Source: Planctomycetota bacterium
Lineage (GTDB): Bacteria; Planctomycetota; Planctomycetia; Pirellulales; UBA1268
DNA length: 64,000 nt
Direction: 5' to 3'
Assembly (NCBI GenBank): GCA_018970605.1
Contig: JAGWWA010000001.1
Location: 57,742 to 121,741 of the forward strand
In this document: positions 15,057-61,379 of the stretch, one piece after another
How positions within the stretch are numbered: position 1 is the first letter of the stretch
How the letters are laid out: each line of letters starts with the position of its first letter
The notes under the pieces: model-generated
Seen by the model: only the letters and a program-made list of their open reading frames with translations
The model's database searches: none
What the model was told of the DNA's origin: nothing
Position numbers and translations under genes: made by a program

Positions 15057-15147
15057 CAGGAAGCCCAATCGCGTGAGCGATGGGGGCCGGACTGCCGAGG
15101 AGATCAACGCCGATTCTGCCGTACGCCTTACGGCGTTACGCTTCCTG
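15057..15147 (-). repeat. 91-bp intergenic repeat, family C, copy 2 (inverted relative to copy 1)
   Basis: caggaagcccaatcgcgtgagcgatgggggcc ... ccgtacgccttacggcgttacgcttcctg. It is preceded by the small hairpin gcttcct-accc-aggaagc. Confidence 0.7.
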
Positions 15148-15186
15148 CAGCTGTGCCGAATCGCTTCCCCGGAGGCGCTTCCTGCT

Positions 15187-15218
15187 CAGGAAGCCCAGCC
15201 GCGTGAGCGATGGGGGCC
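15187..15218 (-). repeat. partial third copy of the family C arm
   Basis: caggaagcccagccgcgtgagcgatgggggcc repeats 15057-15088 and abuts the stop codon of the upstream gene (15219-15221). Confidence 0.6.
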
Positions 15219-22807: not shown

Positions 22808-22836
22808 TTGATACCGCTGCCGGGGGACGCCGTCAA
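22808..22836 (-). promoter_or_regulatory. candidate sigma70-type promoter for the PspA-AAA+ cluster
   Basis: On the minus strand it reads TTGACG - 17 nt - TATCAA. The -35 element overlaps the stop codon of the upstream giant gene. Confidence 0.4.
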
Positions 22837-28145: not shown

Positions 28146-28251
28146 GAAAGCCTCCCGGCTCGCGAGCGACGCGGCCACGCGGCATGTCGCTCGATGCCGC
28201 CGCGTCCACCGCTCAAACCCCCCGGAGAATACGGGTCGCCATCGAAAGGGA

Positions 28252-28293
28252 GTATTAGCCACCCGGCTAATCCCCGTCGTCACGATGGGCCTG
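28252..28293 (-). promoter_or_regulatory. conserved upstream block containing the 16-bp palindrome TTAGCC-N4-GGCTAA (28255-28270)
   Basis: The minus strand reads caggcccatcgtgacgacggggaTTAGCCgggtGGCTAAtac. The same block occurs at 36149-36188. Exactly 109 nt separate the palindrome from the ATG at 28145. Confidence 0.5.
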
Positions 28294-28297
28294 CACA

Positions 28298-29638: not shown

Positions 29639-32600
29639 TCCGGCACCCCGCGACGGCCGCCGCCACGCAGGCAAGCCATGCGAGGCTCGTCGGCTCGGGC
29701 ACCACGGCCAGCGGTGCTTGCGCCATCCCGGCCGGCCCGGGAACGTAGTCGCCCGTGTCGAACAGCGCCGTGCTCACGAAATCTGCGGCGTCGAGGATGT
29801 CGACCAGGCCGTCGGCGGTGAAGTCGCCCTGCGACCAATCGGCGTCCAAGCCCGTGTCGAAGCGGGCACCGGCCAGGAAGTTGGCGGCGTCGAGCACGTC
29901 CACGAGCCCGTCGATGTTGGAATCGCCCGCCGCGGCGAAGCTGATCGTGAAGGAGCCGTCGCCGTTATCCAGCCAGCCTACGGTGCGAGGCACTCCGGCG
30001 GCGAGGTCGGCTGCGACCGCCGATGAGACGATGCCGCCCGGCCCATCCCAGGCGCCATCGTCGCGGCCGGCCGTCAGGTCGGCCCGCAGCATCGAGAGCG
30101 TCATGCCCGAGGCGATCGTCACCCGCCCCCGGCCGACGTCGAGTCGGCCCGCCGCCTCGTCGATCGCGAGCGACTTCAGGGTCACGGCGAGCGGACGATC
30201 GGCGGGCAGGGCCACTCTCCCGCCCGTGATCGCGACGGATCCCGTCGTCGCCAAGGCCGCGGAGTGGGCCAGGCGGAGCGTGCCCTCCTTCACCGTCGTC
30301 GGCCCGGTGAACGCGTTGGCCGCGGCGAGCGTCCACGTGCCCGAGCCCGACTTCACGAGGCTCACCGCCGACACGCCATCGGCGATCGCACCGGCAACCA
30401 TGTTGCCGGTGCTGCTGCCGGCGAGTTCAAGCGTCTTGGGCACCGCGTTGATCGCGGCCGCGGCGCCGCCGAGCGTCACCATCGCGGTCGTGGGCATGAG
30501 CCGAGTGACCGCACCGCTGGCCCCTGCGGTCAATGCCAGCGACGGCATCACCAGTTCCGCCGTCCCGCTGGTCACGCTCGTCGAGGCCTGCACCTCGACC
30601 GTGCCGCCGCTCAGGCTGATTCCCGAGGCGAGCGCGTGGCGGAGGCCGACACCCGTGGTGCCGGCAGGCCGGCCGACGACGAGCGTGGTGCCGAAGCCGT
30701 TGCTGCCGCGTAGGGACGGCTGCGGGCCGCTGCCGTCCGTGGCGAGTTCGATGGTCGAGGCCGTCGAACTGCCCAGCACCAGGCCGCCGCCGACCGGCAG
30801 GCCACCAAGGGCACCGGAATGGGCAAGCACGATGGCGCCGCCGTTGCCGACCGTGACATCGCTCGTGAACGTGTTGGCCGCCGCGAGCACGAGACGCCCC
30901 CCCGTCACCGCCAGCCCACCGGCGCCCGAAACGGCTCCGGCAAGCGTCTGAGTCGCCGAACCCTGGTGAAGGAACAGCGCCCCCGCCGCGAGCGACAGCT
31001 CGCCGGCGAACGTACCGCCCGGACCGAGCGACCCCGCCCCGCTCACGGCCAGCGTGCCGTCGGCCACCGTGATGTCGCCGCTGAAGCCGCCGCTGCCCGT
31101 AAGCGAAAGCGTGCCCCCGCCGTCCTTGCGCAGAACGCCGTCGCCGGACAGGCCGCCCGCGAGCGTGACCGCGTCGGCGTGATCAAAGGCGAGCGTGCCG
31201 CGGATGACGAACTCGGAACTCGGAATCACGAGACCGCTGCCGCCGCTGCCGAATCGAAGAGTGCCGTCGGCGACGGTGGTGCGGCCGGTGTAGCCGCTCG
31301 ACCCGTTGATCACGAGCGTCGCCGTGCCCGCCTTGGTCAGGCCGCTGGCGCCCGCGGCGTTGTTGAAGACGCCGTTGTGCAGGATAACGTCGGCCGTGGC
31401 CGTGTTCACCACGAGTTCCCGCGTCGCCCCGGCCACGAGATCCATGCGGGGCGAACCGCCGATCGTCAGCGGCCCGGCGCCGGTCGTGAGGATCCCATTG
31501 ACCGTGAGCGTGACCGTGTTGGCCGCCGGTTGCACGCCCCCGCCGCCGCCGTAGTTGATGGTGTTGACGACCCGCGTCAGCCCCATGGCGGCGAAGGTGC
31601 CCGACGAGGTCACGTCGTAGTTGACGGTGCCCGTGTCGCCGGACGGGATGCCGCCGAAGGCGGAGGTGCCGCTGAGCACCGTCCCGGTCGTGAACGCCGC
31701 GATCGTCCCGGCGGCCACCGTGGCATACCGCGTGCCGGTCCCGGAACCGGTGAACGCCCAGGCGGCGAGAATCCCGTTCGTGGCCGTCGCCGACGTGGTG
31801 ATCGGTCCCGTTCGCGTCACGAAGCGAACGACGCCGCCGTTCTCGCGCGTGAGGGCCGACAGCCCGAGCGTACCGGTGGCGATCGTGTTCGACACGGCCG
31901 AATCGCCGGCGGTGATCGTCACGCCAGCGACGGCCTGCGATCCGCCCGCCTTCGCCAGGCCGAACGTGCCGCCGGCGAGCGTGAGCCGCGCCGCAGGGTT
32001 CACGCCACCCGCCACCTGCAGCATGCCCGCCTCCACCCGCATGCCGCCGCTGAAGGTGCTCGTGCCGGAGAGCGTGAGCGTGCCGTCGCCGACTTTCACG
32101 ATCCCGCCCGTGCCGCTGATCGTATTCGCATAGGTCGCCGTCCCCGCCCGATCGAAGATGACGCTCGCCTGGTTCGCGATCGGCCCCGTCAGGCCGCCCG
32201 TCGTGCCGCCGGCGCCAATCCGGAGCGCGCCCGCGGCCACCGTGGTGGTGCCGGTGAAGGCGTTGTTGCCGGCGAGCGTGAGCATGCCGCCGCCCTCTTT
32301 GACCAGGCCGCCGCTGCCGCTGATCACGCCGCCATACGAGGTGCTCCGCCCGGTGCCGCCGATCCGCAGCGACTGACCTCCCAGGGCGAGGTTTCGCACG
32401 CCCGTCAGGCCAGCCAGGCTGAACGTCGCGGGCGCCGTGCCACCGAACACGATGGTGCCTGCGTCGGCGGCATCGAGATCGAGCGTCGCGGCGGCGAGGG
32501 CCGCGGTGCCCGAGATCGCGAGCGTGCCGGCGGCGATCCGCACCGTGCCATCGAGATCGTTGACGGCTGCGAGTGCGAGCGTTCCGCTGCCGAGCTTCGT

Positions 32601-35438
32601 GAGCGATCCGCCGACGCTCACGAGCGGCTGTGAGTAACCGACGCTGCGGCCCGCGGTGTCGATCCGAAAATCCTGGCCGGCGGCCTGCGAGAATCGCGGC
32701 GAGTAGTCGGTCGCATTCGCGGCGGAATGTTGGAGCCCGCCCCCCGAAAACACGATCGTACCGGCCGCGCCGAGAGCCTCCGCCGAACCGGCCTGCAGGA
32801 GCCCGCCAGCCAGCGTGAGCCCGCCGGTGAACGAGTTGGCGCCCGTCAGCGACACGGTGTCGCCGCCGACCTTCACGAGCGGCGCACCGGTCGCCAGATC
32901 GGCCGTCACCAGCAGGAAGCCGTCGCCGCCGCCGAGCCGGTATCCCCCTGCCCCGGGCGTCACGCCGCCGGTGAAGGACGCCATGCCGCTGCCACCGAGG
33001 GAGAGTCCGGGCAGGCCACGCAGATCGAGGGATGCGCCGAGCGTCCCCGAAATCGCGACCGCTCCCGTCGACGCAGGATCGATCCGCCCACCCGCGATCC
33101 AGTCCGCGACGGGAGCGCCGTCGAACGGCGCGAATACACCGCTCGACCCGATGAGCACCGTGCCGGTTGCGGGCAGCGCGGTCGACCCGGTGAACCTCAG
33201 GATGCCCTCCTCGATGATCATGCCGCCACCGAACGTGCTCGTGCCCCCGAGCGTCAGCACGCCCGACCCGGTCTTCACGAGGCCCCCGGTACCCGCGATG
33301 CCCCCCGTGGAGACCGTCGAGCGGCCGTTGCCGCCGACACGCAGCGTGTGTCCTGCGATGGAGAGGCCACGGCTTCCCGACAGGCCGCCGACCGAAAACG
33401 TCTGCGGGAAGGCCGCCACGAAACTGATGGAGCCTGCATCAGCCGCATTCAAGTCGAGCGTCGAGCCGGCGAGGCTCGAGGTGCCGGCGATCCGCAAGGT
33501 GCCGGCCACGACCCGCGTGTCGCCCGCGAAGGCATTGTCGCCGGCGAGCGTCCAGATCCCGCTGCCGGTCTTGATGAGTCCGCCGGAACCGACATACGCC
33601 TTGGCGAGCGTGCCGGATCCGGTGGTCGCCTGGAGCGTGAGATCGCCACCGAGCGACACGATCCGCCCGACGGAGTTCGACTCCAGGAACGACACGGTCA
33701 CACCGGGCTGCACTTCGAGGATCGCCCCGCCCGGTCCCACCGTGAAACCGCGGCTCGTCGAGCCGGAGCCTCCGAGGCGAAGCGCGCCGCCATCGAGGAT
33801 CACTCGATCGGCGGCCGGCGGCAGGTTGCCGAGCGACCCGGTGGGCTGGTCGGAAAAACTGCTCGCGAACAGCGTGCCCGACGAGACCGTGATCGCGGCC
33901 TCCGTCCCCACGACGCCCGTGTAGAGCCGGCCCGAGACGGCCAGCATGCCGCCCTCGACGCGGGTCGGCCCCGCATACGTGTTCGCCGTGGTCGAGAGCA
34001 CGAGAATCCCGCCGCCCGCCTTGGTGATCCCTGCGGCGGCGGTGCCGGCCACGAGCGGGCCGGCGAGCGTGGTCGTGCCCGTGCCGACGAGCGTGGTCTG
34101 GCCGGACACCGTCGCCGTGCCGGTCAGCCGCAGGTTGCCGACGGCATCGATCGCGCCGCCGTCGAACGCGAACGGATCGTCGAGCGTGAAGGTGCCCGCC
34201 GCCTGCTCGATCGCCAGCGTCCCGGCGGCGCCGAGTCGCATGCTCCCGGCCCCCGTCATGCTCGCCGATCCGGTGAGCCGCAGCGTGCCGCCGATCACCT
34301 CGATCGTGCCGTCGTTGGTGATCTGCGTGCCATCGAGCGAGAGTCGGTTGGTGCCCGTCTTCCGCAGGACGGCGTCCGGCTCGACCCGGACCCACGTGCT
34401 CGTGCCACTGAGCCCCCAGTTCATGCCCCCGGTGACACTGCTGGTATTGGCCAGGGCGCTGAGATACTTCACCGCGCCGGGAGCCGTGCCGGTCATCGTC
34501 AGCGTGCCGCCGGCCAGGTAGGCCACGTACTCGCCGAGGTTTTGGCCGCCGATGTTGGCCGTGCTGCCGCTGGCGACCGCGCCCACGTAGCGGTGGGCCA
34601 TCGGGGTGGGCGTGGGGGGCGAGCCCGAGTAGAGCGGCGCGTCACTGAACCAGTGGTACCAGGCGTACCCGGGCACGTAGCTCCGCGACTCGAGCCGCGG
34701 CAGCACGTTGTCGAGAAACAGCTTGTTGGCGTCGATGATCTGCTGGTCGGTGTAGGCGCCGCCCCAGTCGTGGATCGCGAACTCGGTCGGCATCACCGAC
34801 TTGCCGTAGGTGGTGCGGTAGTAATCGACGCTGCCGATGAACCAGTTGGCCGCCTCGGTGGGGTTGTTGGGATTCGAGTAGCCGTACCAATGAAACGCGA
34901 TCGCATCGACTCGAAGGTTGGGGTTGTACTTCGGGTTGGCCGCGTTGGTGCGGCGGTCCTCCAACTGGGTCATGAAGTCGGAGATCCAGGTTCGGCCCGC
35001 CGTGTTGTCGGAGACGGCAGGACTGGCCAGCTTCACGCTGGTGCCGGCGAAGGCGTTGCAGATCCGCGACCAGGCGTCGAGCGCGGTGGTGACGCTCATG
35101 TTCGCCTGGTCGGTCCGCTCCGGCTCGTTGAAGCCCAGCACCCACTCCACGCCGGCCCTGTTCTTGACCGTGTTGATCGTCGCATCGCTCGGCGAGTTCC
35201 AGAACATCGGGTAATGCTTGGCGCCGAAACTGCCCGGCTGAGCGGTGCCCGTTCCCCAGGTGTAGTACCAGCCGGCGCCCACGGCCTGGAGGTTCGCGTA
35301 GTTCGCCCCGACATCGCCGAACCCACGCTTGGAGTTGATGATCTGGGCGGACGAAGCTTCGGCGAGGCAGATGCCGACCGCGATGGCGATCAGTCCACGC
35401 GTGAGACCGGCACGGCGGCGAAGAGACGGGGCTGCCAT
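29622..35438 (-). CDS. giant surface protein: signal peptide, GH128-like 'glycosyl hydrolase catalytic core', PATR repeats, dockerin-like repeats, PEP-CTERM anchor (1938 aa)
   Basis: The N-terminal ~300 aa (KRGFGDVGANYANLQAVGAGWYYTWG ... VEWVLGFNEPERTDQANMS ... VDAIAFHWYG ... VMPTEFAIHDWGG) resemble the Glyco_hydro_cc family. C-terminus GDSNIDGLVDVLDAANF ... VVPEPTSLAWLACVAAAVAGCRISRRS. Confidence 0.85.
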   Translation of the reverse strand: MAAPSLRRRAGLTRGLIAIAVGICLAEASSAQIINSKRGFGDVGANYANLQAVGAGWYYTWGTGTAQPGSFGAKHYPMFWNSPSDATINTVKNRAGVEWVLGFNEPERTDQANMSVTTALDAWSRICNAFAGTSVKLASPAVSDNTAGRTWISDFMTQLEDRRTNAANPKYNPNLRVDAIAFHWYGYSNPNNPTEAANWFIGSVDYYRTTYGKSVMPTEFAIHDWGGAYTDQQIIDANKLFLDNVLPRLESRSYVPGYAWYHWFSDAPLYSGSPPTPTPMAHRYVGAVASGSTANIGGQNLGEYVAYLAGGTLTMTGTAPGAVKYLSALANTSSVTGGMNWGLSGTSTWVRVEPDAVLRKTGTNRLSLDGTQITNDGTIEVIGGTLRLTGSASMTGAGSMRLGAAGTLAIEQAAGTFTLDDPFAFDGGAIDAVGNLRLTGTATVSGQTTLVGTGTTTLAGPLVAGTAAAGITKAGGGILVLSTTANTYAGPTRVEGGMLAVSGRLYTGVVGTEAAITVSSGTLFASSFSDQPTGSLGNLPPAADRVILDGGALRLGGSGSTSRGFTVGPGGAILEVQPGVTVSFLESNSVGRIVSLGGDLTLQATTGSGTLAKAYVGSGGLIKTGSGIWTLAGDNAFAGDTRVVAGTLRIAGTSSLAGSTLDLNAADAGSISFVAAFPQTFSVGGLSGSRGLSIAGHTLRVGGNGRSTVSTGGIAGTGGLVKTGSGVLTLGGTSTFGGGMIIEEGILRFTGSTALPATGTVLIGSSGVFAPFDGAPVADWIAGGRIDPASTGAVAISGTLGASLDLRGLPGLSLGGSGMASFTGGVTPGAGGYRLGGGDGFLLVTADLATGAPLVKVGGDTVSLTGANSFTGGLTLAGGLLQAGSAEALGAAGTIVFSGGGLQHSAANATDYSPRFSQAAGQDFRIDTAGRSVGYSQPLVSVGGSLTKLGSGTLALAAVNDLDGTVRIAAGTLAISGTAALAAATLDLDAADAGTIVFGGTAPATFSLAGLTGVRNLALGGQSLRIGGTGRSTSYGGVISGSGGLVKEGGGMLTLAGNNAFTGTTTVAAGALRIGAGGTTGGLTGPIANQASVIFDRAGTATYANTISGTGGIVKVGDGTLTLSGTSTFSGGMRVEAGMLQVAGGVNPAARLTLAGGTFGLAKAGGSQAVAGVTITAGDSAVSNTIATGTLGLSALTRENGGVVRFVTRTGPITTSATATNGILAAWAFTGSGTGTRYATVAAGTIAAFTTGTVLSGTSAFGGIPSGDTGTVNYDVTSSGTFAAMGLTRVVNTINYGGGGGVQPAANTVTLTVNGILTTGAGPLTIGGSPRMDLVAGATRELVVNTATADVILHNGVFNNAAGASGLTKAGTATLVINGSSGYTGRTTVADGTLRFGSGGSGLVIPSSEFVIRGTLAFDHADAVTLAGGLSGDGVLRKDGGGTLSLTGSGGFSGDITVADGTLAVSGAGSLGPGGTFAGELSLAAGALFLHQGSATQTLAGAVSGAGGLAVTGGRLVLAAANTFTSDVTVGNGGAIVLAHSGALGGLPVGGGLVLGSSTASTIELATDGSGPQPSLRGSNGFGTTLVVGRPAGTTGVGLRHALASGISLSGGTVEVQASTSVTSGTAELVMPSLALTAGASGAVTRLMPTTAMVTLGGAAAAINAVPKTLELAGSSTGNMVAGAIADGVSAVSLVKSGSGTWTLAAANAFTGPTTVKEGTLRLAHSAALATTGSVAITGGRVALPADRPLAVTLKSLAIDEAAGRLDVGRGRVTIASGMTLSMLRADLTAGRDDGAWDGPGGIVSSAVAADLAAGVPRTVGWLDNGDGSFTISFAAAGDSNIDGLVDVLDAANFLAGARFDTGLDADWSQGDFTADGLVDILDAADFVSTALFDTGDYVPGPAGMAQAPLAVVPEPTSLAWLACVAAAVAGCRISRRS

Positions 35439-35445
35439 GCCGCAC

Positions 35446-36105
35446 CTAGCTCGGCTCGCGGCGCGAGGCTCCGGCCTTGAGCAGTCCGAGATCGAACGCC
35501 CGCGCCACCGCCTGCGTGCGATCACCGACACCGAGCTTCTCGATCACCCCGGCGACGTGGGCCTTGGCGGTGTGCGTGGAGATGCCGAGCAGTTTGGCGA
35601 TCTCGTTGTTGGTAAAGCCCTCGCGGAGCAATCCCACCACCTCGAGTTCGCGGGGCGTGAGCAGGGCCGCCGGTCCACTCGCCGTCGCCGCGGGCCGGGT
35701 CTTCACCACACCCCTCACCGGCCGCCCCCCCCTGTGAACCTCCCGGATCGCCTCGAAGAGTTCGCGGTGCCCGACGTGCTTGGTGACGTACCCGCTGGCG
35801 CCGGCATCCAGCGACCGCTGGGCATCCTCCTGCGACTCCGCCGAGGTGAGCATGAGCACGCTCGCCGCCGGCGACGCGCGGCGGATGCGGTGGAGGGTGG
35901 CGATCCCGTCGATTCCGTGCATGGCGAGATCCAGGAGCGTGACGTCGGGCTGGTGCTGCTGCCAGAGGCTATACGCGGCCTCCCCGTCGTCGGCCTGCGC
36001 CACCACCGAAAAATCCGGCTCCGAGCCCAGGAGATTGGCCAGTCCGGCCCGCATGACGGGGTGGTCATCCACGAGAAGCAAGCGAATTTTGCGAAGCGGG
36101 GTCAT
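35446..36105 (-). CDS. response regulator, NarL/FixJ (LuxR-type HTH) family
   Basis: IRLLLVDDHPVMRAGL, the phospho-acceptor context VTLLDLAMHGIDG, LTPRELEVVGLLREGFTNNEIAKLLGISTHTAKAHV. It ends 7 nt before the start of the giant gene at 35438. Confidence 0.9.
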   Translation of the reverse strand: MTPLRKIRLLLVDDHPVMRAGLANLLGSEPDFSVVAQADDGEAAYSLWQQHQPDVTLLDLAMHGIDGIATLHRIRRASPAASVLMLTSAESQEDAQRSLDAGASGYVTKHVGHRELFEAIREVHRGGRPVRGVVKTRPAATASGPAALLTPRELEVVGLLREGFTNNEIAKLLGISTHTAKAHVAGVIEKLGVGDRTQAVARAFDLGLLKAGASRREPS

Positions 36106-36294: not shown

Positions 36295-37827
36295 ATGAGG
36301 TCTGCCATGCCTGTCACTCACGCCATCGGCCTGCGACCGGTTCTCGTGCTTGCAGCGGTCGCGATCGTCTCCTTGGTCGCCCGCGGCGCCGTGGCGGTTG
36401 ACTACTACTGGACAGCCGACGGCACGAACCTCGGTGGCTCTGGAACCTGGAACACCACGAGCAGCCTGTGGCGTTCCGGCTCGTCGACGGGCACGCTGAC
36501 CACGTTCGTGAGCGCGACCACGAGCCAGGCATTCCTGCAGGGCACGAGCGGCACGCTCACGACGAACGGCACGCCGCAGTTCAATCGGATCACCGTGAAC
36601 TCAGGGAGCTTCACCGTGTCGGGCCTCGTGGCCTGGGCGACCGACGGCACGATCTCGCCCTCGCGGGCTATCGTCGTGAACCCCTCCACGGCGCTGACGA
36701 TCACCAGCACGAACGGCGGCGGCGTGGGGCTCTCCGTGCTCGGCGGCGGCACGCTCACCTTCACGCAGAGCAATCGCAACTACGGCGGCACGATCACCGT
36801 GTCGACCGCGGGCACCAGGCTGATCTTCTCGGCCGTCAATGGGCTCGACAACGGCACGAACAGCACGCCACTCACGATGCAGGCCGGGACGACGCTGCAG
36901 CTCAACCAGACGAACAACTATCGGACGGCGATGTCGCTGAGTTCTGCTGCGGTGGAAGTCAATGCGGGCAGCGCACTCGTCTTCCAAAACAGCTCGTCCG
37001 TTACCGTGACGGGCACGTCGGCATCGGTGATCAAGACCGGCACCAACGCTGCAGGCACGATCCAGTTCAACAGTACCAGAACGTTCACGGTCGGCTCGAC
37101 CGGCGATCCGTCGGGCATCGATTTCGACATCCAGTGCCGGGCCACCGGCGGTTCTGGGCTCGTGAAGGCCGGTCCTGGCACGATGCGGCTCTCGGGCACG
37201 ACTTCGACGTATACGGGGACCACCAGCGTCTCTGCCGGGAAGCTGATCATCGATGGCAACAACCTGGCGGCCACGGGAACTGTTTCAGTGGCGGCGGGGG
37301 CATGGCTGGCCGGTACCGGAACCACGGGCGGTCCGCTTTCCATCAGCGGCAGCCTGAGCCCCGGCAATGGCATCGGCACGCTCACGGGCGGTTCGTCGGC
37401 GTCCTTCGCGAATGGGTCTCTCTTCGATTATCAGATGCTCACCTCCACGCCGTCGGCCGATCTGCTGAAACTGGCCGGCGACCTGACGCTGACCGGGTCG
37501 GTGGCGCTCTCGCTCTCGGACCTGGGGACGTCGTCCACCCTGCCAGCCGACACCGTGCTCTCGCTCGTGAACTACGGCGGCGCACTGAGCGGACTGTTTT
37601 CCTACGGCGGCGTGACGCTCAACGACAACGACCAGTTCACGCTCGGCAGCAACACCTGGCGGATCGCCTACGCCTCCGCGCAGCAGGGCGTGAACGTCGC
37701 CTCGCCGCTGCCGTCGGGACAGTTCGTCAACCTGATCGTGGTGCCCGAGCCTGGATGCCTGACGGCGATCGCCTCCGGATTCATGCTCGCTGGAATATGC
37801 CTGGCACGCCGCCGCTCGCAGGACTGA
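36295..37827 (+). CDS. PATR-repeat surface protein with PEP-CTERM anchor, a short paralogue of the 22833-28145 protein
   Basis: MRSAMPVTHAIGLRPVLVLAAVAIVSLVARGAVAVDYYWTADGTNLGGSGTWNTTSS. The first ~330 aa align closely with giant protein 1. C-terminus VVPEPGCLTAIASGFMLAGICLARRRSQD. The start at 36295 was chosen because 36178 lies inside the palindrome and 36295 reproduces the 109-nt spacing. Confidence 0.8.
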   Translation: MRSAMPVTHAIGLRPVLVLAAVAIVSLVARGAVAVDYYWTADGTNLGGSGTWNTTSSLWRSGSSTGTLTTFVSATTSQAFLQGTSGTLTTNGTPQFNRITVNSGSFTVSGLVAWATDGTISPSRAIVVNPSTALTITSTNGGGVGLSVLGGGTLTFTQSNRNYGGTITVSTAGTRLIFSAVNGLDNGTNSTPLTMQAGTTLQLNQTNNYRTAMSLSSAAVEVNAGSALVFQNSSSVTVTGTSASVIKTGTNAAGTIQFNSTRTFTVGSTGDPSGIDFDIQCRATGGSGLVKAGPGTMRLSGTTSTYTGTTSVSAGKLIIDGNNLAATGTVSVAAGAWLAGTGTTGGPLSISGSLSPGNGIGTLTGGSSASFANGSLFDYQMLTSTPSADLLKLAGDLTLTGSVALSLSDLGTSSTLPADTVLSLVNYGGALSGLFSYGGVTLNDNDQFTLGSNTWRIAYASAQQGVNVASPLPSGQFVNLIVVPEPGCLTAIASGFMLAGICLARRRSQD

Positions 37828-37937
37828 AACACATCGAGCCCCACGCCTCGCCAGCCCCGTCGGGGTTGGTGGACGGGCCAGTGCCGTTTCGGGCGTGGCA
37901 GCCGTCACGCTATACTCGCCGCGGGAGGGCGGAGATC

Positions 37938-39035
37938 ATGACACTACAGCGACATCGATCCGTGGCTCACGCATCGGGATTTACGCTGGTCGAGCTCCTG
38001 GTCGTGATTGCGATCATCGCCACGCTGATCGGCCTCCTGCTGCCAGCGGTGCAAACAGCACGTGAAGCTGCTCGGCGGACTGCCTGCTCCAACAACCTCA
38101 AGCAGGTGGGGCTCTCACTCCACACCTACCAGAACGCGAAGAAGTGGCTGCCACGATCGTTCGGCAACCGCAACATGCAGAACTCCGCCTTCACGGCCAA
38201 CAACGGCAAGGCGGGCTGGCAACAGGGCACGCCCGACACGTGGGCGGCAGAAGTTTTTCCGTTTGCCGAACAGGCGGCGCTGTTCGACCAGTTCGATTTC
38301 ACGAAGCGGGTTGGCGACACGTCGCGGAGCCTGGCACGGCCGGTGTCCAATGCAACGCTCGTCAAGCAGGTCATTTCGATGTATGTCTGCCCGAGCGACA
38401 CGGCCGCAGGCACCCCGGTGTTCAAGAACCGTTGCAACTACAACAACTTCCGGCTGACCCAGGAGCAACACGGACTCTGGTACGCCCCGTCATTCGGGCC
38501 CACCGTGCTCATCGACCGTCCCAGTTGCACGTACTGCCCGTCGAACTCCGCGTGGGGCACGTCGCCGACCCCCGGCCCCGGCAACCCCTGCTGCAACCTC
38601 ATGGGACCGGCCAGTCACCAGGGGTTCGGCGGGATCGCCATCGGCATGTTTTCGCAGGAGCCGATTCGGGTGACGTTCAAGGACGTCCCCGACGGCCTTT
38701 CAAAGACGATCATGGTCGGCGAGACGCTCCCCGGCGACACCGTGCACAACGGTGTGTACATGAACGGGATGACGGTGCTGACCAACATTCCGCTGAACAC
38801 GTTCGCCCTGCCGAACGAACTCGTTCCCGATGGCCAGCATGATGCTCCCGGCATCGGCTCCGCGAGCGACTATCGGCTCAACGGGATCAAGAGCAAGCAC
38901 TCGGGCGGCGCGATGGTGGCCATGGGAGACGCGTCGGTGCGTTTCCTGCAGGACTCGATCGACGACACCATGCTCTGGGCCATGGGCACGCGAGCCCTGG
39001 CCGCGAGAGACGTGGCCACCGTGAGCGAGAAATGA
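37938..39035 (+). CDS. DUF1559 domain protein with a prepilin-type N-terminal cleavage/methylation motif
   Basis: GFTLVELLVVIAIIATLIGLLLPAVQTAREAARRTACSNNLKQVGLSLHTYQ is the hallmark planctomycete DUF1559 N-terminus, and a GGAMVAMGDASVRFL C-terminal motif is present. GGAGGGCGGAG lies upstream of the ATG. Confidence 0.9.
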   Translation: MTLQRHRSVAHASGFTLVELLVVIAIIATLIGLLLPAVQTAREAARRTACSNNLKQVGLSLHTYQNAKKWLPRSFGNRNMQNSAFTANNGKAGWQQGTPDTWAAEVFPFAEQAALFDQFDFTKRVGDTSRSLARPVSNATLVKQVISMYVCPSDTAAGTPVFKNRCNYNNFRLTQEQHGLWYAPSFGPTVLIDRPSCTYCPSNSAWGTSPTPGPGNPCCNLMGPASHQGFGGIAIGMFSQEPIRVTFKDVPDGLSKTIMVGETLPGDTVHNGVYMNGMTVLTNIPLNTFALPNELVPDGQHDAPGIGSASDYRLNGIKSKHSGGAMVAMGDASVRFLQDSIDDTMLWAMGTRALAARDVATVSEK

Positions 39036-45173: not shown

Positions 45174-47093
45174 ATGGGATTCCGTTCGCTCCAGGCCTGC
45201 GTCGACGCCCTGCGAAACGACCGCCAGGCCACTGGCCCGCTGGCCCGTCGGCAGCTCGTCGTCGTCGATCACCCCGTCGATCCCCATCTCGAGATTGCCG
45301 AGATCCAACGGCGGCTGTTCCGCGCCGGCGGGCCGGCGGTGCTGTTTTCGAAGCCGCGCGGCAGCGACTTCCCGGTGCTCGTGAATCTCTACGGCACGCG
45401 GGAGCGGATCGAGCGGATCTTCGCCGATACGCTCGACCGCGTCCGGCGGCTCGTGGAACTCAAGCTCGACCCCATGGCTGCACTGCGGAAGCCGGGCCGC
45501 TACTGGCGGTCCCCCTTCGATGCGCTGGCCATGCTGCCGAAGCGGGTCCGCAGTGGTCCGGTGCTCACCCGCTCGATCCCGCTCTCCCGGCTGCCGCAGG
45601 TGGTGTCGTGGCCGGGAGACGGCGGGCCGTTCATCACGCTGCCGGCCGTCTACAGTGAGCACCCTGACAAACCCGGCACGAAGCACTCGAACCTCGGCAT
45701 GTACCGGGTACAGCTCGCCGGAAACGCCTACGAACCAGACCGCGAGGCCGGCCTCCACTACCAGCTCCACCGCGGCATCGGCGTGCACCACGCTGCAGCC
45801 CTTGCCCGGGGCGAGCCGCTCAAGGTGGCGATCTTCGTGGGCGGCTCACCGGCCATGGCCGTGTCGGCGGTGATGCCGCTCCCCGAGGGACTCTCCGAAC
45901 TCACGTTCGCCGGCGCCCTGGCGGGCCATCGCATTCCGATGATCCCGCGGAGAAATCGTCCCGCGATCTACGCCGATGCCGACTTCGTGATCGAGGGCAC
46001 GGTGAACCCCGGAGCCACCAAGCCCGAAGGCCCGTTCGGCGACCACCTCGGCTACTACGCCCGGCGGCATGAGTTTCCGCTGCTCCGCGTGGATCACGTC
46101 TGGCACCGCGAGGGCGCCATCTGGCCGGTCACCGTGGTCGGCCGGCCGCCGCAGGAAGACACGCTCTTCGGCTGGCTCGTTCACGAGCTCACCGGCCCCG
46201 TGATCCCCACGGTCCTGCCCGGCGTGTCGAGCATTCATGCCGTCGATGCCTCTGGCGTCCATCCCCTGCTGTTGGCCGTCGGCAGCGAACGCTACCTGCC
46301 GTGGAAGCGGTCTGATCGGCCGGCCGAACTCCTCACGCAGGCATCGGCGATCCTCGGCCAGGGGCAGTTGTCGCTGGCAAAATACCTGTTGATCGTCAAT
46401 GGCACCGACGCTCCGGGGCTCGACGCCCACGACGTGCAGCCGTTCCTGGCGCACGTGCTCGCCCGGGTCGACTGGAGCCGCGACTGCCACTTCCATACCG
46501 AAACGTCGATCGACACGCTCGACTATTCCGGCAGCGGCTTCAATGCCGGTTCGAAACTCGTGGTGGCGGCGCGGGGTCAGGCACGCCGCGAGCTTGCCGC
46601 CGATCTGCCGCCGGGGGTGTCGTTGCCCGACGGCTTCGCCAACCCGCGGGTCTGCCTGCCTGGAGTCGTGGCGGTCGAGGGGCCCCGGATCGAGCCGCGG
46701 CCGCGGCTCGACGCTCCGAACGACGCCGCGATCTGGGAGTCGGCCCGCACGACCCCATGGTCGGCCGACGTGGAGCGACTCTGCGCCGCGATCGGCCCCG
46801 AGCATCCGCTCCGTCGCTTTCCGCTCATCGTCGTCGTCGATGACGCCGGCTTCGCCGCCGCATCGCTCGCCAACTGGCTGTGGCTCACATTCACACGGTC
46901 GAATCCTGCGGCCGATGTACACGGCGTCGATGCCTTCACGCAGCAGAAGCACTGGGGCTGCCGGGGTCCGCTCGTGATCGACGCCCGGCTCAAGCCGCAC
47001 CACGCGCCGCCCGTCGAAGAAGATCCCGCGATCACGGCCGCCGTCGATGCACTCTGCGTCCGAGGCGGCCCGCTCGGCGACCTCGGGCTGTAA
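45174..47093 (+). CDS. UbiD family decarboxylase (prenyl-FMN dependent)
   Basis: HPVDPHLEIAEIQRR, PAVLFSKPRGSDFPVLVNLYGTRERI, HYQLHRGIGVHH, GPFGDHLGYY. Its length of 639 aa is longer than E. coli UbiD. Confidence 0.85.
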   Translation: MGFRSLQACVDALRNDRQATGPLARRQLVVVDHPVDPHLEIAEIQRRLFRAGGPAVLFSKPRGSDFPVLVNLYGTRERIERIFADTLDRVRRLVELKLDPMAALRKPGRYWRSPFDALAMLPKRVRSGPVLTRSIPLSRLPQVVSWPGDGGPFITLPAVYSEHPDKPGTKHSNLGMYRVQLAGNAYEPDREAGLHYQLHRGIGVHHAAALARGEPLKVAIFVGGSPAMAVSAVMPLPEGLSELTFAGALAGHRIPMIPRRNRPAIYADADFVIEGTVNPGATKPEGPFGDHLGYYARRHEFPLLRVDHVWHREGAIWPVTVVGRPPQEDTLFGWLVHELTGPVIPTVLPGVSSIHAVDASGVHPLLLAVGSERYLPWKRSDRPAELLTQASAILGQGQLSLAKYLLIVNGTDAPGLDAHDVQPFLAHVLARVDWSRDCHFHTETSIDTLDYSGSGFNAGSKLVVAARGQARRELAADLPPGVSLPDGFANPRVCLPGVVAVEGPRIEPRPRLDAPNDAAIWESARTTPWSADVERLCAAIGPEHPLRRFPLIVVVDDAGFAAASLANWLWLTFTRSNPAADVHGVDAFTQQKHWGCRGPLVIDARLKPHHAPPVEEDPAITAAVDALCVRGGPLGDLGL

Positions 47094-47123
47094 AGCCGCG
47101 GGCATCCTCGCTGCACGCGGCGG

Positions 47124-47200
47124 CTGATGGCGGTTCGCCCCACGGCGTTGGGCTTGTACGACCGCCGAGAAAGCCGACCGGCCGTAAGGCCGCGGGCGTC
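47124..47200 (-). repeat. intergenic repeat family B, inverted copy
   Basis: Reverse complement of 2443-2527 with a few mismatches (ctgatggcggttcgccccac ... aaagccgaccggccgtaaggccgcgggcgtc). Confidence 0.7.
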
Positions 47201-47240
47201 CCCGCACAAAGGAGCCAGCTTCAAACAGACCGGCCATACA

Positions 47241-47431
47241 ACGCGTCACACGTGATCCTGAGGCGTTCCTGCGGCAGTGTCACTCCGCCAGGAAGCCCCG
47301 AGCGGGAGCGAGGGGATCACGCGCGGCGGCGGCGAGCGACGCGTGCGGATCCGCGGAGCCGTTCCCGTCGCTTCCGCTCCGGGCTTGGAGGGTTCCGTGG
47401 AAAAACCCGCGGGGACCACGTGCGACGCGTA
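47241..47431 (+). repeat. palindromic MITE/REP-like element, family A, copy 2 (~191 bp)
   Basis: Terminal inverted repeats acgcgtcacacgtgat ... ccacgtgcgacgcgta. The left and right halves are imperfectly complementary. It is nearly identical to the reverse complement of 50991-51182. Confidence 0.75.
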
Positions 47432-47464
47432 GAAGGCCGCGGGTAAACCGCGCTCGATGCCGCG

Positions 47465-47833
47465 TCAGGCGGAGATGGACGCGATGCGAATCTTCGTCGA
47501 GATCGACCGGTGACCGGTGCGGCGGCGGTAGTTCTTGCGGCGTGCGAACTTCTGCACGTAGATCTTCTCGCCCTGCACGAGCCCGAGCACCTCGGCCTTC
47601 ACCGTCGCGCCCTTCACCTTTGGCTTGCCGATCGTGAGCTTGCCGGCCTTGCTGACGGCGAGCACATCTTCGAACACCACCTCGCTCCCGGCGGGCAGGT
47701 GGCGGAAGTCGATCTCGAGCTCCTGCCCCTCCATCACGCGGTACTGGCGGCCGCCATCGACGACGACGGCGTATTCGTGGGCGGCGCCCTTCATGGAGGA
47801 GGCAGAATCGGCGGCGGGAGTGGCCTTGGCCAT
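47465..47833 (-). CDS. rplU: 50S ribosomal protein L21
   Basis: YAVVVDGGRQYRVMEGQELEI ... VVFEDVLAV ... IGKPKVKGATVKAEVLG ... KIYVQKFARRKNYRRRTGHR. Confidence 0.9.
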   Translation of the reverse strand: MAKATPAADSASSMKGAAHEYAVVVDGGRQYRVMEGQELEIDFRHLPAGSEVVFEDVLAVSKAGKLTIGKPKVKGATVKAEVLGLVQGEKIYVQKFARRKNYRRRTGHRSISTKIRIASISA

Positions 47834-50959: not shown

Positions 50960-50990
50960 TACAGTCCCGCCAGGAAGCCGAAGGCCGTCA

Positions 50991-51182
50991 TACGCGTCGC
51001 ACGTGATCCTCGCGCGTTTTTCCACGGAACCCTCCAAGCCCGGAGCGGAAGCGACGGGAACGGCTCCGCGGATCGGCAAGCGTCGCTCGCCGCCGCCACG
51101 CGTGATCCCCTCGCTTCCGCTCGGGGCTTCCTGGCGGAGTGACACCACCGCAGGAACGCCTCAGAATCACGTCTGACGCGTA
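50991..51182 (-). repeat. palindromic MITE/REP-like element, family A, copy 3 (~192 bp, inverted relative to copy 2)
   Basis: Termini tacgcgtcgcacgtgat ... atcacgtctgacgcgta. The internal sequence is collinear with the reverse complement of 47241-47431. Confidence 0.75.
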
Positions 51183-51230
51183 CAAGGCCTCGGGCGCGGT
51201 CGAGATGAGGCCGAGTCTGTTCTGGCAGCA

Positions 51231-51259
51231 CCCCGCGGCCTCACGGCCGGTCGGCTTTC
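51231..51259 (+). repeat. partial family B repeat
   Basis: ccccgcggcctcacggccggtcggctttc matches the 25-nt B unit with one or two changes. Confidence 0.5.
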
Positions 51260-51287: not shown

Positions 51288-52889
51288 TTACGGAAATCGC
51301 ACGCTGCGCCCGCTCGAATCCCAGGCGTCGAACACCAGATGCTCCGGCGACACGCCGTCCTTGCCGACGACGTGAAGCTGGATGTGCGTCCGGTCCTCGA
51401 ACTGCGTGATCTCCCGCCGCTTGCGGTTGTTGATCCACGTCGCCACCTCGTCGTGCACCGTGATGTTCAGCCGGGTCACATCGTCGCGGGTCTCCGACAG
51501 GTGGAGCGTCCGCATCACCTCGATCGCCATGCTCTCGGCCGTCTTCACAGTGCCCGTGCCGGTGCAGGTGGGACAGTCGCGGAAGATGCTCTTGCGGAGC
51601 GACGGACGAATCCGCTGCCTCGTCATCTCGATCAGACCGAAGGGGCTCGTCCGCAGGATCTTCGTGCGGGCCCGGTCGCGCTTCATCGCCTCGTGGAGTG
51701 ACTTCTCGACGCCGCGGCGATACTTCTCCTTCCGCATGTCGATGAAGTCGTTCACGATCACACCGCCGAGGTCGCGGAGCCGCAGCTGCCGGGCGATCTC
51801 CTTGGCCGCGATCAGGTTCATCTGGTAGGCGTTCTCCTCGGCGCTCTTTTCGGTGCGGAACGAGCCCGAGTTGACGTCGATCGCCACCAGGGCCTCCGTC
51901 TGGTCGATCACGATCGACCCGCCCCCCTTGAGTGGCACCTTCCGCTGGTGGATGCGCCCGATCTCCTCCTCCAAACCGTAGCGGTGGAAGAGCGGCTCCT
52001 TGCCCTCGTAGAGCTGCAGCCGCGGGGCGTACTTCGGCATCACGAGCTCCAGAAACTCCTTGGCACGCTCGTAGGCGGCCGGCTCGTCGATCAGGATCCG
52101 CGCCACGTCCTCCGTGAACATGTCACGGATCGTGCGGATGATCATGTCGCTCTCCTGGTAGATGTCGATCGGCGCGGAATACTTTCGCATCCGCTTCACG
52201 ATGCTCTTCCAGAGCCGCAGGAGATAGGCCATGTCGCGGGCCATCTCCGACTTCGTCCGCTCGGTGCCGGCCGTGCGGACCACGAAACCCACCCCCTTCG
52301 GCGGCTTGAGGTCGAGCATGATGTCGCGGAGCACGCGGCGATCCCGCTCGTCGTCGATCTTCTTGGAGATGCCCACGCGGCCGAGCGGCGGCATCAGAAC
52401 GAGGTAGCGCCCGGGGATCGAGATGTAGGTGGAAAGGGTCGGCCCCTTGGTGCCGAAGCCCTCCTTGATCACCTGCACGAGCACCTCGTCTCCGCGGCGA
52501 AGGACGTCCTGGATCGGCGGCTTCACCCGCGGCCGGTCGCCGAGCCGCGGCTTCCGCCGGGCCCGGGCAGCCTCGTCCCCGGCGGCCTCGACCGTCTTCC
52601 CCGAGGGATCGACCACGTCAAACGCCTTGTCGGGATCGAGCCCGCCCTGCCGGTAGTACTGCGGCTCCACGTCGCTGATGTGGAGGAAGCCGTTGCGGCC
52701 CACGCCGAAGTCCACGAACGCCGCCTGGATCGACGGCTCGATGTTGACGATCCGCCCCTTGTAGATGTTGCCGACGAGGTTGTCCTGGCTGGTTCGCTCC
52801 ACGTAGAGCTCCTCCAGCACCCCGTCTTCCATGATCGCGATCCGGCACTCTTCCGGCTGCGACACGTTGATCAGCATTTCCTGCTTCAT
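51288..52889 (-). CDS. rng: ribonuclease G/E family endoribonuclease
   Basis: MLINVSQPEECRIAIMEDGVLEELYVER ... VGNIYKGRIVNIEPSIQAAFVDFG (S1 domain), TEALVAIDVNSG, and a Zn-link CPTCTGTG. Confidence 0.9.
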   Translation of the reverse strand: MKQEMLINVSQPEECRIAIMEDGVLEELYVERTSQDNLVGNIYKGRIVNIEPSIQAAFVDFGVGRNGFLHISDVEPQYYRQGGLDPDKAFDVVDPSGKTVEAAGDEAARARRKPRLGDRPRVKPPIQDVLRRGDEVLVQVIKEGFGTKGPTLSTYISIPGRYLVLMPPLGRVGISKKIDDERDRRVLRDIMLDLKPPKGVGFVVRTAGTERTKSEMARDMAYLLRLWKSIVKRMRKYSAPIDIYQESDMIIRTIRDMFTEDVARILIDEPAAYERAKEFLELVMPKYAPRLQLYEGKEPLFHRYGLEEEIGRIHQRKVPLKGGGSIVIDQTEALVAIDVNSGSFRTEKSAEENAYQMNLIAAKEIARQLRLRDLGGVIVNDFIDMRKEKYRRGVEKSLHEAMKRDRARTKILRTSPFGLIEMTRQRIRPSLRKSIFRDCPTCTGTGTVKTAESMAIEVMRTLHLSETRDDVTRLNITVHDEVATWINNRKRREITQFEDRTHIQLHVVGKDGVSPEHLVFDAWDSSGRSVRFP

Positions 52890-60179: not shown

Positions 60180-60256
60180 GGCACTTTCGTAGCACCGGTT
60201 TTCAACCTCAGTGTTCCCGCTCGCGTGGCAGCGTGGGAAACGCTGTCTCCACCAGG

Positions 60257-60351
60257 AAGCCCCGAGCGCGAGCGAGGGGATGGATCGCGACGAATAGGAA
60301 GCGACCATTGCCGATCGACAGAGCCCATCCCCTCGCTCGCGCTCGGGGCTT
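60257..60351 (+). terminator. perfect 27-bp inverted repeat (41-nt spacer) followed by a T-run; related to the family A repeat core
   Basis: aagccccgagcgcgagcgaggggatgg (60257-60283) pairs with ccatcccctcgctcgcgctcggggctt (60325-60351), followed by tttt. It lies between two convergent genes. Confidence 0.6.
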
Positions 60352-60368
60352 TTTGGAAGCGATCGCCT

Positions 60369-61379
60369 TCAGCCGGCGGCGCCGAGCCGGTCGATGCGAC
60401 GGATCAGGGCTGCAGCGCTTGTTCGCACATCGGCCACGGGGTCGCTGCCGAGCGCCGTGATGAGTTTCGCAACGGCGGCGGGGGGCGGGCGTTTCGTGGC
60501 ATCCACGAGCAAGCCCACGCCCTTGATCGCATTGACCACGATCATCGCCCGGCGGTACCGCTCGGCCTGCCCCTTCGGATCGCCAGCAGCGGGCACGGCG
60601 TCGGGCAGTGCGAGCATCTCTTCGATGGTCTGCCAGGCGGCCTCGTCTCCCTGCCGGGCCAGGCCGATCGCAGCGTTGTAGCGAACGTCGTCGCCGCCGT
60701 CGTCAACGAGTTGCCGGAGCCGCTCGATGGCAGGCGCACCTCCGAGCACGCCGAGCGTGTAGGCAGCCGATGACCGCAGCGACACGCCCTCGCTCGCCGA
60801 TGCCTTCAGGACGGCGGCGGCCACGGCAGCGGGGTCGTCGAAGCTCTTGCCCGCGGCGGTGAGATTGGCCGAGAGCACGGCGATCGCCTCCACGGCCGCC
60901 TGCGCGGTCTGCGGATCGTTGGCGTCGCCCGCCCGCTTCATCAGCGGCACGGCCGCCTCCGGCACGGCAAACTCCCCGAGCGCACGGCAGAGATAGTTGC
61001 ACAGCGTCTTTGCCTGCTCGGCCGCGTTGCCACTGCCACTGGTGCGGCCGCTGGCCATCTCGTCATCGAGGATGCCGGCGAGGTCGCCGGCCAGTTTCGC
61101 GTCGCTCTTCAGGGCCGCGCCGCCCGGCCCGCGAAGATCGTTGGCGAAGTTGAGCGCCACCTGCCAGCGGCCCTCGTTGTTGCGGCGAAGGGCGCGGACG
61201 TAGCTCTCCGGGTCGTTACCCATCTGGGCGAGCCAGTAGAATCCCCAGACGACGAACAGCCCGCACGACACGATCGTGAGCGGCACCACGAACAGCTGCA
61301 CCAGAAATCCCGCGTTGGGCGGCTCGACAGGAGGCAGAGCATCGTCGGGCCGGATGCCGTGGCGGGGTTGTTCGTTCAT
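60369..61379 (-). CDS. HEAT repeat-containing membrane-anchored protein
   Basis: N-terminal TM FLVQLFVVPLTIVSCGLFVVWGFYWL. HEAT/PBS-lyase-like repeats: SSAAYTLGVLGGAPAIERLRQLVDDGGDDVRYNAAIGLARQGDEAA. Confidence 0.65.
   Translation of the reverse strand: MNEQPRHGIRPDDALPPVEPPNAGFLVQLFVVPLTIVSCGLFVVWGFYWLAQMGNDPESYVRALRRNNEGRWQVALNFANDLRGPGGAALKSDAKLAGDLAGILDDEMASGRTSGSGNAAEQAKTLCNYLCRALGEFAVPEAAVPLMKRAGDANDPQTAQAAVEAIAVLSANLTAAGKSFDDPAAVAAAVLKASASEGVSLRSSAAYTLGVLGGAPAIERLRQLVDDGGDDVRYNAAIGLARQGDEAAWQTIEEMLALPDAVPAAGDPKGQAERYRRAMIVVNAIKGVGLLVDATKRPPPAAVAKLITALGSDPVADVRTSAAALIRRIDRLGAAG

Follow-up and report, generated by a model that had tools for sequence, protein, structure and literature searches.

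Bacterial miniature inverted-repeat transposable elements (MITEs), such as Correia in Neisseria, ERIC/IRU, and RUP, are noncoding units of 100 to 200 bp with terminal inverted repeats (TIRs); they fold into one long hairpin, lie between genes, and are often cotranscribed. Among HUH-Y1 proteins, Quentin et al. (2018; PMC6006769) described a small class 3 that comes mainly from Planctomycetes, Acidobacteria, and Proteobacteria and whose genes are flanked by atypical hairpins that occur in up to about 600 copies per genome. Here we examined a palindromic repeat, family A, in a 64,000-nucleotide stretch of DNA (the window) from a Planctomycetota bacterium of the order Pirellulales (GenBank assembly GCA_018970605.1, contig JAGWWA010000001.1, positions 57,742 to 121,741 of the forward strand); contigs and loci compared with it carry labels such as L134. 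In a preliminary description made from the sequence of the window, the copy between the UbiD and rplU genes had been called one of three palindromic MITE- or REP-like elements (REP, repetitive extragenic palindrome) of unproven mobility. This was a fair description, as the copies stand in unrelated contexts, have sharp boundaries, and occupy sites that differ in relatives. Our analysis indicates that family A is probably a lineage-specific, noncoding, nonautonomous nested repeat of about 191 bp, in which a heterodimer resembling a REPIN (a REP doublet forming a hairpin) sits inside a MITE-like TIR shell and which has been spread in trans.

Like REPINs (Bertels and Rainey 2011; PMC3116915), family A contains two inverted REP-type hairpins, here separated by a 44-nt spacer, that combine into one long hairpin. 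It is likewise extragenic and multicopy, and singletons (2586-2609) and doublets (60247-60360) of its hairpin coexist. Unlike REPINs, it lacks a GTAG tag, its arms form a heterodimer, and an extra outer TIR shell adds about 50 nt on each side. Moreover, its host is a planctomycete and not a Pseudomonas or an enterobacterium, and no REP-associated tyrosine transposase (RAYT) was identified in the approximately 790 kb sampled. Di Nocera et al. (2013; PMC3733652) reported REP dimers within long palindromes (GTAG-15 in Anabaena and CGTC-1 in Halothiobacillus), a preference of REPs for the 3' sides of genes and for convergent spacers, hetero-dimers, and mosaics with other repeat families. Placement on the 3' side, convergent spacers, hetero-dimers, nesting, and mosaics were all seen here, but the hairpin module of family A has neither a GTAG nor a CGTC tag and the sequence of the palindrome is unrelated. 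GTAG REPs have been recorded in the PVC superphylum, with R. baltica among the species in which REP families coexist (PMC3733652); these are not the present hairpin.

Copies and anatomy of family A

A repeat search recovered all three of the copies of about 190 bp that had been described, which we call A, B, and C (Table 1). The segments 5304-5494 and 47241-47431 were 87% identical, 47241-47431 and 50991-51181 were 94% identical in inverted orientation, and 5295-5495 and 50990-51190 were 88% identical. When the copies were aligned with their flanks by MAFFT, the shared sequence ran from (T/A/G)ACGC to CGTA and the flanks were unrelated. The family is not restricted to this region, since metagenome contig L134 contains a fourth full copy, 91 to 94% identical and again with unrelated flanks, which was the only further copy found. 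Family A thus comprises four homologous copies with four unrelated flanks, sharp common boundaries, and the same 191-bp order of parts.

The flanking genes were identified by precomputed Pfam matches and hmmscan as those for DprA, Calx-beta, UbiD, L21, DUF1015, and RNase G. All three copies in the window lie just downstream of stop codons, as had been reported, at distances of 10 to 147 nt, and two of the three occupy spacers between convergent genes. Copy B begins 147 nt past the UbiD stop and lies 33 nt past the rplU stop; copy C lies 31 nt past the DUF1015 stop and 105 nt past the RNase G stop.

Each copy is built, in order, from an 18-bp TIR, a spacer of about 34 nt, a 24- to 25-nt module, a 44-nt center, the inverted module, a spacer of about 27 nt, and the second TIR. 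The terminus pattern TACGCGTC[AG][CG]ACGTGAT was matched exactly at both ends of copy C and with one mismatch at each end of copy B, and a conspecific contig (L109) carries a variant of copy B with a perfectly complementary right TIR. In copy A, the left end has two to three mismatches and the right end is degenerate (CGATCAAGGGGAAACCGTA). The TIRs of 16 to 17 bp given in the preliminary description are therefore present in copies B and C, where they span 18 to 19 bp, but not in copy A.

As had been proposed, each copy can fold into one long hairpin, with minimum free energies between -97 and -120 kcal/mol and z scores between -4.2 and -7.5 versus dinucleotide shuffles. Because the two inner arms are different sequence types, arm-to-arm pairing in this hairpin includes mismatches. 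The arms are the most conserved part of the element. Among the four independent copies, 1 of 56 alignment columns in the arms was variable, compared with 32 of 135 elsewhere (Fisher p = 9e-5), and the sole variable arm position sits in the loop (GGGA/GGAA). The constrained part of the element, judged from this alignment, appears to be the modules and not the termini. The recurring pseudo-open reading frames (pseudo-ORFs) noticed earlier were confirmed, although they are trivial; the string VSLRQEAPSGSEGITRGGGERR is found in all three copies.

The 24-nt hairpin module

The module can be written AAGCCC-N5-GNRA-N5-GGG, in which a 4-bp G/C stem leads through a tandem G·A mismatch to a 2-bp stem capped by a GNRA loop. 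Both arm types have the predicted fold ..((((..((....))..)))).., and the hairpin is flanked by AAG on its 5' side and by (A)C/T on its 3' side. On the purine strand the foot is (A/G)AAG (AAAG, GAAG, or CAAG), and the tetranucleotides GTAG and CGTC are absent from the hairpin base. Outside family A, the window contains a single module, with a module also present at the orthologous place in sister species, and an inverted doublet (Table 1). The doublet modules (60258-60281 and 60327-60350, with one base different) form a near-perfect 32-bp hairpin (z = -8.8 as DNA and -10 as RNA) that adjoins the 3' end of a HEAT-repeat gene (60369-61379, - strand). The core of family A does recur in this hairpin, which had been described as perfect (60257-60351), but one base differs.

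The exact right-arm 21-mer (CCCGTCGCTTCCGCTCCGGGC) was searched in one genome per species and was found in at least 108 stretches; the window's own genome was not among the matches listed. These stretches came from about 20 metagenome-assembled genomes (MAGs) assigned to Planctomycetaceae, Pirellulales, Planctomycetia, and Phycisphaerae, nearly all of them Planctomycetota. Among the matches listed were also single MAGs labeled Kuenenia, Opitutaceae, and Chloroflexia, and short contigs in such nonplanctomycete bins may be misbinned; the Phycisphaeraceae MAG has several long contigs with proper doublets. As the 21-mer reads PVASAPG in one frame, a few isolated matches (e.g., L013, L014, L084, and L103) may be coding coincidences. 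When the whole 191-bp unit was compared with the 21-mer loci by BLAST, only 26 to 50 nt around the module matched. The left, center, and right segments of family A were present only in conspecific contigs and in L134, and they were never found separately among the 108 loci of other Planctomycetota. By these comparisons the full 191-bp unit appears to be lineage specific, and its conserved core is not private to family A. Because this core is a module widespread in Planctomycetota that has the architecture of the class 3 hairpins, we regard family A as a nested composite.

All matches to the frame AAGCCC-N5-GNNA-N5-GGG had complementary inner arms, and pairing had not been imposed. Of the main inner-arm types, two contain the tandem G·A (GGAGC/GCGAC and CGAGC/GCGAG) and three are fully paired (CCGGC/GCCGG, CGGGC/GCCCG, and CGGGT/ACCCG). 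In this sample, which was seeded on one 21-mer, the module covaries: among 40 distinct variants, 85% of the cells were paired, four pairs showed double changes, 0 of 500 shuffles reached the observed value, and no slid register came close. The unpaired cells were the tandem G·A. The sampled loci, about 790 kb, contained 237 modules, and heuristic gene calls had these facing gene 3' ends in 215 cases and 5' ends in 84.

Table S1 of PMC6006769 gives class 3 hairpins for Planctomyces limnophilus (CACGAGCCGGAAGCGTGAGCGACGGGT), Legionella (CCGAGCCGCGACCGTAAGGGAGCGGA), and Solibacter (CAGAGCCGCGACCGTTAGGGAGCGTCCCG). The L. pneumophila entries and one extended S. usitatus entry carry the structure ((((..((....))..)))), and the P. 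limnophilus hairpin and the remaining S. usitatus entries are 3-bp or otherwise shifted variants. Like the module, class 3 hairpins carry a tandem G·A between a G/C stem of 3 to 5 bp and a 2-bp stem that closes a 4-nt G..A loop, and both are high copy and intergenic. The 3' arm GCGACGGG of the right-arm module is identical to that of P. limnophilus ADG69454.1 (CACGAGCCGGAAGCGTGAGCGACGGGT there versus AAGCCCGGAGCGGAAGCGACGGGAC here). Unlike class 3 hairpins, which have the 5' foot CnGA(G), the module has the foot (A/G)AAG, and family A departs from the published description in having its hairpins as an inverted pair inside an 18-bp TIR. The module is probably a hairpin of the class 3 kind. We do not claim its membership as proven because the 5' foot, alone among the defining features, does not match.

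In other Planctomycetota the 21-mer usually stands in other composite repeats (e.g., L023 at 6901, L006 at 1091-1272, L025, L031, and L093), where it is paired with fully Watson-Crick variants such as AAGCCCCCGGCGGAAGCCGGGGGAC. A Phycisphaerae MAG (L099, 2377-2600) has a head-to-tail array of modules with a period of about 28 nt and no spacer, and a 1.87-Mb contig labeled Chloroflexia (L089, 317-540 and 1528) has a module array with a period of 55 nt. A module-flanked gene in the latter contig was considered as a transposase and rejected; judged by eye from its translation, it resembles a 2-hydroxyacid-dehydrogenase-type protein.

Turnover at the three sites and rival explanations

Orthologous sites of all three copies differed among relatives in presence or in content. 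In sister species (UbiD 81 to 86% identical in amino acids), the gene order MgsA-OsmC-UbiD> <L21-DAO-DUF1015 is kept. The UbiD and L21 stop codons lie 3 to 4 nt apart in L149-L152, leaving the copy B site empty, 68 nt apart in L153 and L154, and 371 nt apart in the window. Copy B was present in all conspecific contigs that reach that far. By this comparison, the whole UbiD-rplU mosaic, copy B together with the neighboring two-family composite, arose by insertion in the lineage of the window. At the copy C site, a conspecific contig (L128) from the same European Nucleotide Archive assembly that holds copies A and B has an identical RNase G gene and identical flanks on both sides, with a different cassette. 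This cassette is about 137 nt of other modules, compared with about 270 nt including copy C in the window, with one module in the opposite orientation. Copy A was present in conspecific contigs, one MAG (L118) having a 6-nt deletion in its center (window 5385-5390), and was missing in a more distant relative (L061). In a sister species (DprA 88% identical in amino acids), the orthologous spacer retains the left terminus of copy A with private substitutions (ACGCCTCA ... CACATGATC), although 13 nt split this terminus and the body next to it, about 190 nt long, is a different one. Because the terminus is kept with private substitutions next to a different body, copy A is probably old and bodies probably get replaced. 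The age of copy A agrees with its having the greatest divergence and decay among the copies.

At 47189-47240 the window differs from the conspecific contig L109 by a 52-nt indel, which is bounded by the direct repeat TAYGGCCGGTC. Solo 35-nt left ends (TACGACTCTCACTTGATCCTGAGGCGTTCCTG) occur in two other metagenome contigs, L133 (9100-9143) and L139 (3167-3201), past a gene 3' end and followed by half a module, and are either remnants or independent building blocks.

We propose that an enzyme whose gene lies elsewhere in the genome would have spread the unit in trans. The likeliest candidate would be a class 3 HUH-Y1 protein that recognizes the imperfect hairpins when the DNA is single stranded, in the way proposed for RAYTs and REPINs, and the alternative would be a transposase that binds the TIRs. 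Copies would afterwards decay and be reshuffled by recombination with other intergenic repeat families. On read-through from an upstream gene the unit would fold into a hairpin of high stability, and polymerase or 3' exonucleases may be blocked by it, as a side effect only. A stronger version seems to us unlikely, namely, that a class 3 HUH-Y1 REPtron still uses family A as its working REPIN, inside a second TIR shell. The near-invariance of the 24-nt hairpin across Planctomycetia and Phycisphaerae would in that case stem from an ancient and vertically inherited partnership of a domesticated Y1 enzyme with its hairpins.

A number of observations weigh against spread in trans by a dedicated enzyme. 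Pfam searches of 37 ORFs and the precomputed Pfam matches of the five flanking genes revealed no transposase in the window. A phmmer search with E. coli RayT and a HUH...Y motif scan of about 6,100 ORFs from about 790 kb (the window and L001-L147) likewise found no Y1/RAYT-like ORF, in agreement with the earlier remark that the window has no such gene; a single-copy enzyme gene elsewhere in a several-Mb genome would escape sampling of this size. A consistent target-site duplication, which the preliminary description had suggested looking for, was not seen in the four copies. The direct repeats that flank copies A, B, and C are no longer than 5 to 6 nt and are offset. Only the copy in L134 stands between perfect direct repeats, of 20 nt (CAGCCCCTCGCAGCCTCTCG, 1404-1423 and 1617-1636), which lie inside another repeat family and may have come from a tandem duplication, a nested element, or a long target duplication. 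Copy A and L134 have a variant, noncomplementary right end in common (GATCAAGKGGWAACMGTATCAG), while their bodies differ in affinity. Because the two share this end, perfect TIRs evidently would not be needed for spread; to judge from these ends, versions with imperfect TIRs have evidently spread or the copies recombine. The differences between sites are cassette replacements, without a clean empty/filled pair, and recombination alone could explain them. The copies are 6 to 13% diverged, so there has been no recent burst, and the copy count covers only the 64-kb window and L134, with the window's own genome absent from the module matches listed. The 5' foot of the module, as described above, is a further point of this kind.

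Other searches for a parent element or a vector gave the following. No TIR-like sequence flanked a gene in the window or in 153 other loci (the E. coli locus L148 being excluded). The matches of the TIR scan were the family A copies, three weak single matches (L005, L087, and L102), and a second TIR-like site in L134, where a better partner of the left TIR (1303-1320) lies about 105 nt past the degenerate right end, with 277 nt between the TIR arms. No class 3 gene, recognizable by the motifs NHVH ... YV[VI]xEQ, adjoined any copy examined. Viral contigs had 0 matches to the family A left-end pattern or the module 21-mer and thus gave no hint that a phage is the vector. In this species the short-read (Logan) contigs mostly end inside the element, a point in favor of the proposed reading; on their own these breaks are no measure of copy number, as over 31 bases at that point are identical between copies A and B. 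Compared with bacterial MITEs, family A resembles Correia in having TA on both sides of two of its four copies, a feature that is indistinguishable here from an extension of the TIR. Unlike these MITEs, its four copies have no consistent target-site duplication, no parent insertion sequence with the same ends was found in the loci scanned, conservation is greatest internally, in the arms, and copies with noncomplementary ends have apparently spread anyway.

The elements could instead have been selected by the host as parts of gene 3' ends, serving as bidirectional terminators, as stabilizers of mRNA 3' ends, or both, with the module an RNA motif (a GNRA tetraloop with tandem sheared G·A) bound by a conserved host factor and the multiplicity of copies itself selected. 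We consider this doubtful, though it would account for the location of all copies past stop codons, with two of three between convergent genes, for their very stable fold, and for the constraint on the arms. It would also fit the greater stability as RNA of the purine strand (-12 kcal/mol) compared with its complement (-7.5 to -8.2 kcal/mol), the CTTTT that follows many modules on the other strand, and a weak 5-bp hairpin with a T-run that a consensus scan detected in copies B and C, at their right ends, facing rplU and DUF1015. The module may have an RNA-level role. However, tandem G·A and GNRA-type loops stabilize DNA hairpins too, and the RNA stability of the purine strand therefore does not discriminate between a role as RNA and one as DNA. 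Termination, which the preliminary description had offered as an alternative, received no support from the orientation of the modules relative to the upstream gene (T-run 101 versus purine 114; tandem genes, 15 versus 24; heuristic gene calls), and the only T's invariant after the stem are two (CTT). On these grounds a simple intrinsic terminator was rejected, and the placement of the module is that of REPs, tolerated after genes in either orientation, and not that of an orientation-dependent terminator. Also at odds with a host function are the inconsistent orientation of the three copies to neighboring genes, the empty UbiD/rplU junction of the sister species with its gap of 3 to 4 nt, and the different cassette at the copy C site of L128. 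Nor was there an Rfam match: a gathering-threshold scan of the whole window returned two tRNAs only, and an E-value scan of 47000-47600 gave chance-level matches.

It is also conceivable, although we think it improbable, that no dedicated mobility was involved and that the copies arose by recombination, gene conversion, and local duplication in a pool of modules like that of bacterial interspersed mosaic elements (BIMEs), the TIRs being another palindromic module. The spacers are indeed mosaics in which four or more repeat families alternate in changing order and orientation, the replacement polymorphisms have breakpoints inside other repeats, and the 52-nt indel, the solo left-end fragments, and the lack of a target-site duplication all agree with such an origin. 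In addition, the copy in L134 is closest to B and C in its body and to A at its right end, which suggests that copies are mosaic. Yet four copies with unrelated flanks keep the same 191-bp part order and sharp shared boundaries, the left, center, and right segments never separate among the 108 loci of other Planctomycetota, and the site of copy B arose de novo where two stop codons had abutted, which implies an insertion event of some kind. A coding element is far less credible: we regard it as very improbable that family A has a product of its own, be it a small protein (the recurring ORF ...SLRQEAPSGSEGITRGGGERR) or a small RNA transcribed independently. Several frames are open across the element, but this is expected in such G+C-rich DNA, and a weak sigma-70-like match inside copy C (51139-51167) is not conserved in copy B. 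Six-frame translation, which would also have revealed copies misannotated as genes, found no protein in a database of 5.8 billion sequences (none significant among the 8000 word candidates listed). Finally, substitutions are concentrated outside the hairpin arms and not at third codon positions, and the Rfam scans described above gave no match.

Neighboring repeats and the meaning of family A

The coordinates of family A, its parts, and the features around it are collected in Table 1. The composite repeat that fills the UbiD-rplU gap together with copy B has relatives at 2393-2535 and 51231-51259. The second composite family to which these segments belong, a GAAAGCCGACCGGCCGTAAGGCCGCGGGC hairpin plus a AAGCCCAACGCCGTGAGGCGTGGGGCGAACC hairpin, also occurs in L128 (2380-2500). 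It adjoins copies B and C and follows the Orn/DAP decarboxylase gene, and its order and orientation vary from place to place, as in a BIME-like mosaic. Near copy A, a 19-nt tandem duplication (GTTTGGCNCGCCGATTGCT) at 5552-5590, upstream of the Calx-beta gene, differs between strains. In L061, the more distant relative, three tandem composite units of about 160 nt lie between infA and tex (reverse strand, 7190-7640), where the window has 29 nt (9265-9293), so that here it is the relative that holds the extra repeats.

Table 1. Family A copies, their parts, and associated features of the window (TIR, terminal inverted repeat)
Feature	Coordinates	Strand	Description
Family A copy A	5304-5494	+	10 nt past dprA stop; probably oldest; most decayed; right terminus degenerate
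Copy A left module	5357-5380	+	motif match
Copy A right module	5425-5448	-	motif match
Family A copy B (the copy under study)	47241-47431	+	between convergent UbiD and rplU
Copy B left TIR	47241-47258	+	terminal inverted repeat, ACGCGTCACACGTGATCC
Copy B left inner arm	47293-47317	+	module AAGCCCC-GA-GC-GGGA-GC-GA-GGGGAT
Copy B central spacer	47318-47361	.	44 nt; small palindromes CACGCG..CGCGTG and CGGATCCG
Copy B right inner arm	47362-47385	-	inverted module AAGCCCG-GA-GC-GGAA-GC-GA-CGGGAA; contains 21-mer CCCGTCGCTTCCGCTCCGGGC
Copy B right spacer	47386-47412	.	about 27 nt
Copy B right TIR	47413-47431	-	reads TACGCGTCGCACGTGGTCC on - strand
Family A copy C	50991-51182	-	inverted; between convergent DUF1015 and RNase G; best-kept TIRs; polymorphic within species
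Copy C module, GGAGC/GCGAC type	51037-51060	+	motif match
Copy C module, CGAGC/GCGAG type, GGAA loop	51105-51128	-	motif match
Inverted doublet of module	60247-60360	.	homodimer, REPIN-like; 41-nt spacer; no family A TIRs
Single module, GGCA loop	2586-2609	-	intergenic mosaic after Orn/DAP decarboxylase gene
Composite repeat of other families	47125-47216	+	GGTTCGCCCCAC..GGCGTTGGGCTT hairpin plus GAAAGCCGACCGGCCGTAAGGCCGCGGGC hairpin; fills UbiD-rplU gap with copy B
UbiD gene	45174-47093	+	upstream of copy B
rplU gene (L21)	47465-47833	-	convergent with UbiD
DUF1015 gene	ends 50959	+	borders copy C
RNase G gene	51288-52889	-	convergent with DUF1015

Elsewhere in the window, a gene with a topoisomerase VI subunit A/Spo11 domain (13799-15013, - strand; Pfam E = 4e-59) is bracketed by inverted repeats (13555-13655 and 15057-15218) of 91 nt and 85% complementarity that contain a further hairpin variant, GGAAGCCCAATCGCGTGAGCGATGGGGGCC; the neighboring ORF (15219-17027, - strand) had no Pfam match. 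Two giant PATR-repeat proteins of 1876 and 1969 amino acids (22833-28463 and 29622-35531, both - strand), one with a glycosyl-hydrolase core, are the source of most of the window's direct-repeat families. The first of the two is joined to the DUF1559 ORF at 36468-39035 by an inverted repeat of 495 nt (27588-28082 and 36355-36849, 73% complementary), whose second arm lies upstream of this ORF and overlaps its start. The planctomycete-typical domains of the window (DUF1559 with an N-methyl motif and the PATR giants) agree with the taxonomy of the best DNA matches.

Family A adds to a known class of bacterial repeats, and no major concept is changed by it because REPs, REPINs, BIMEs, and MITEs are already well known. 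In practice, such repeats disrupt short-read assemblies and seed spurious ORFs in the annotation of G+C-rich genomes. The near-invariance of the module across classes of Planctomycetota, together with its link to class 3, is a more interesting thread than the 191-bp unit itself. If the stronger version outlined above were true, the planctomycete class 3 system would be a second, independent example of a long-lived intragenomic replicator, and the GNRA loop with the tandem G·A would be a motif for recognition in single-stranded DNA or RNA. If our preferred reading of family A as a nested repeat spread in trans is right, the planctomycete studied here and its relatives would carry a large population of little-studied REP hairpins of the class 3 HUH-Y1 type. 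Family A would in that case illustrate the assembly of these hairpins into larger palindromes, which are inserted after genes and exchanged between strains, and it offers a tractable case for asking whether class 3 Y1 proteins behave like RAYTs.

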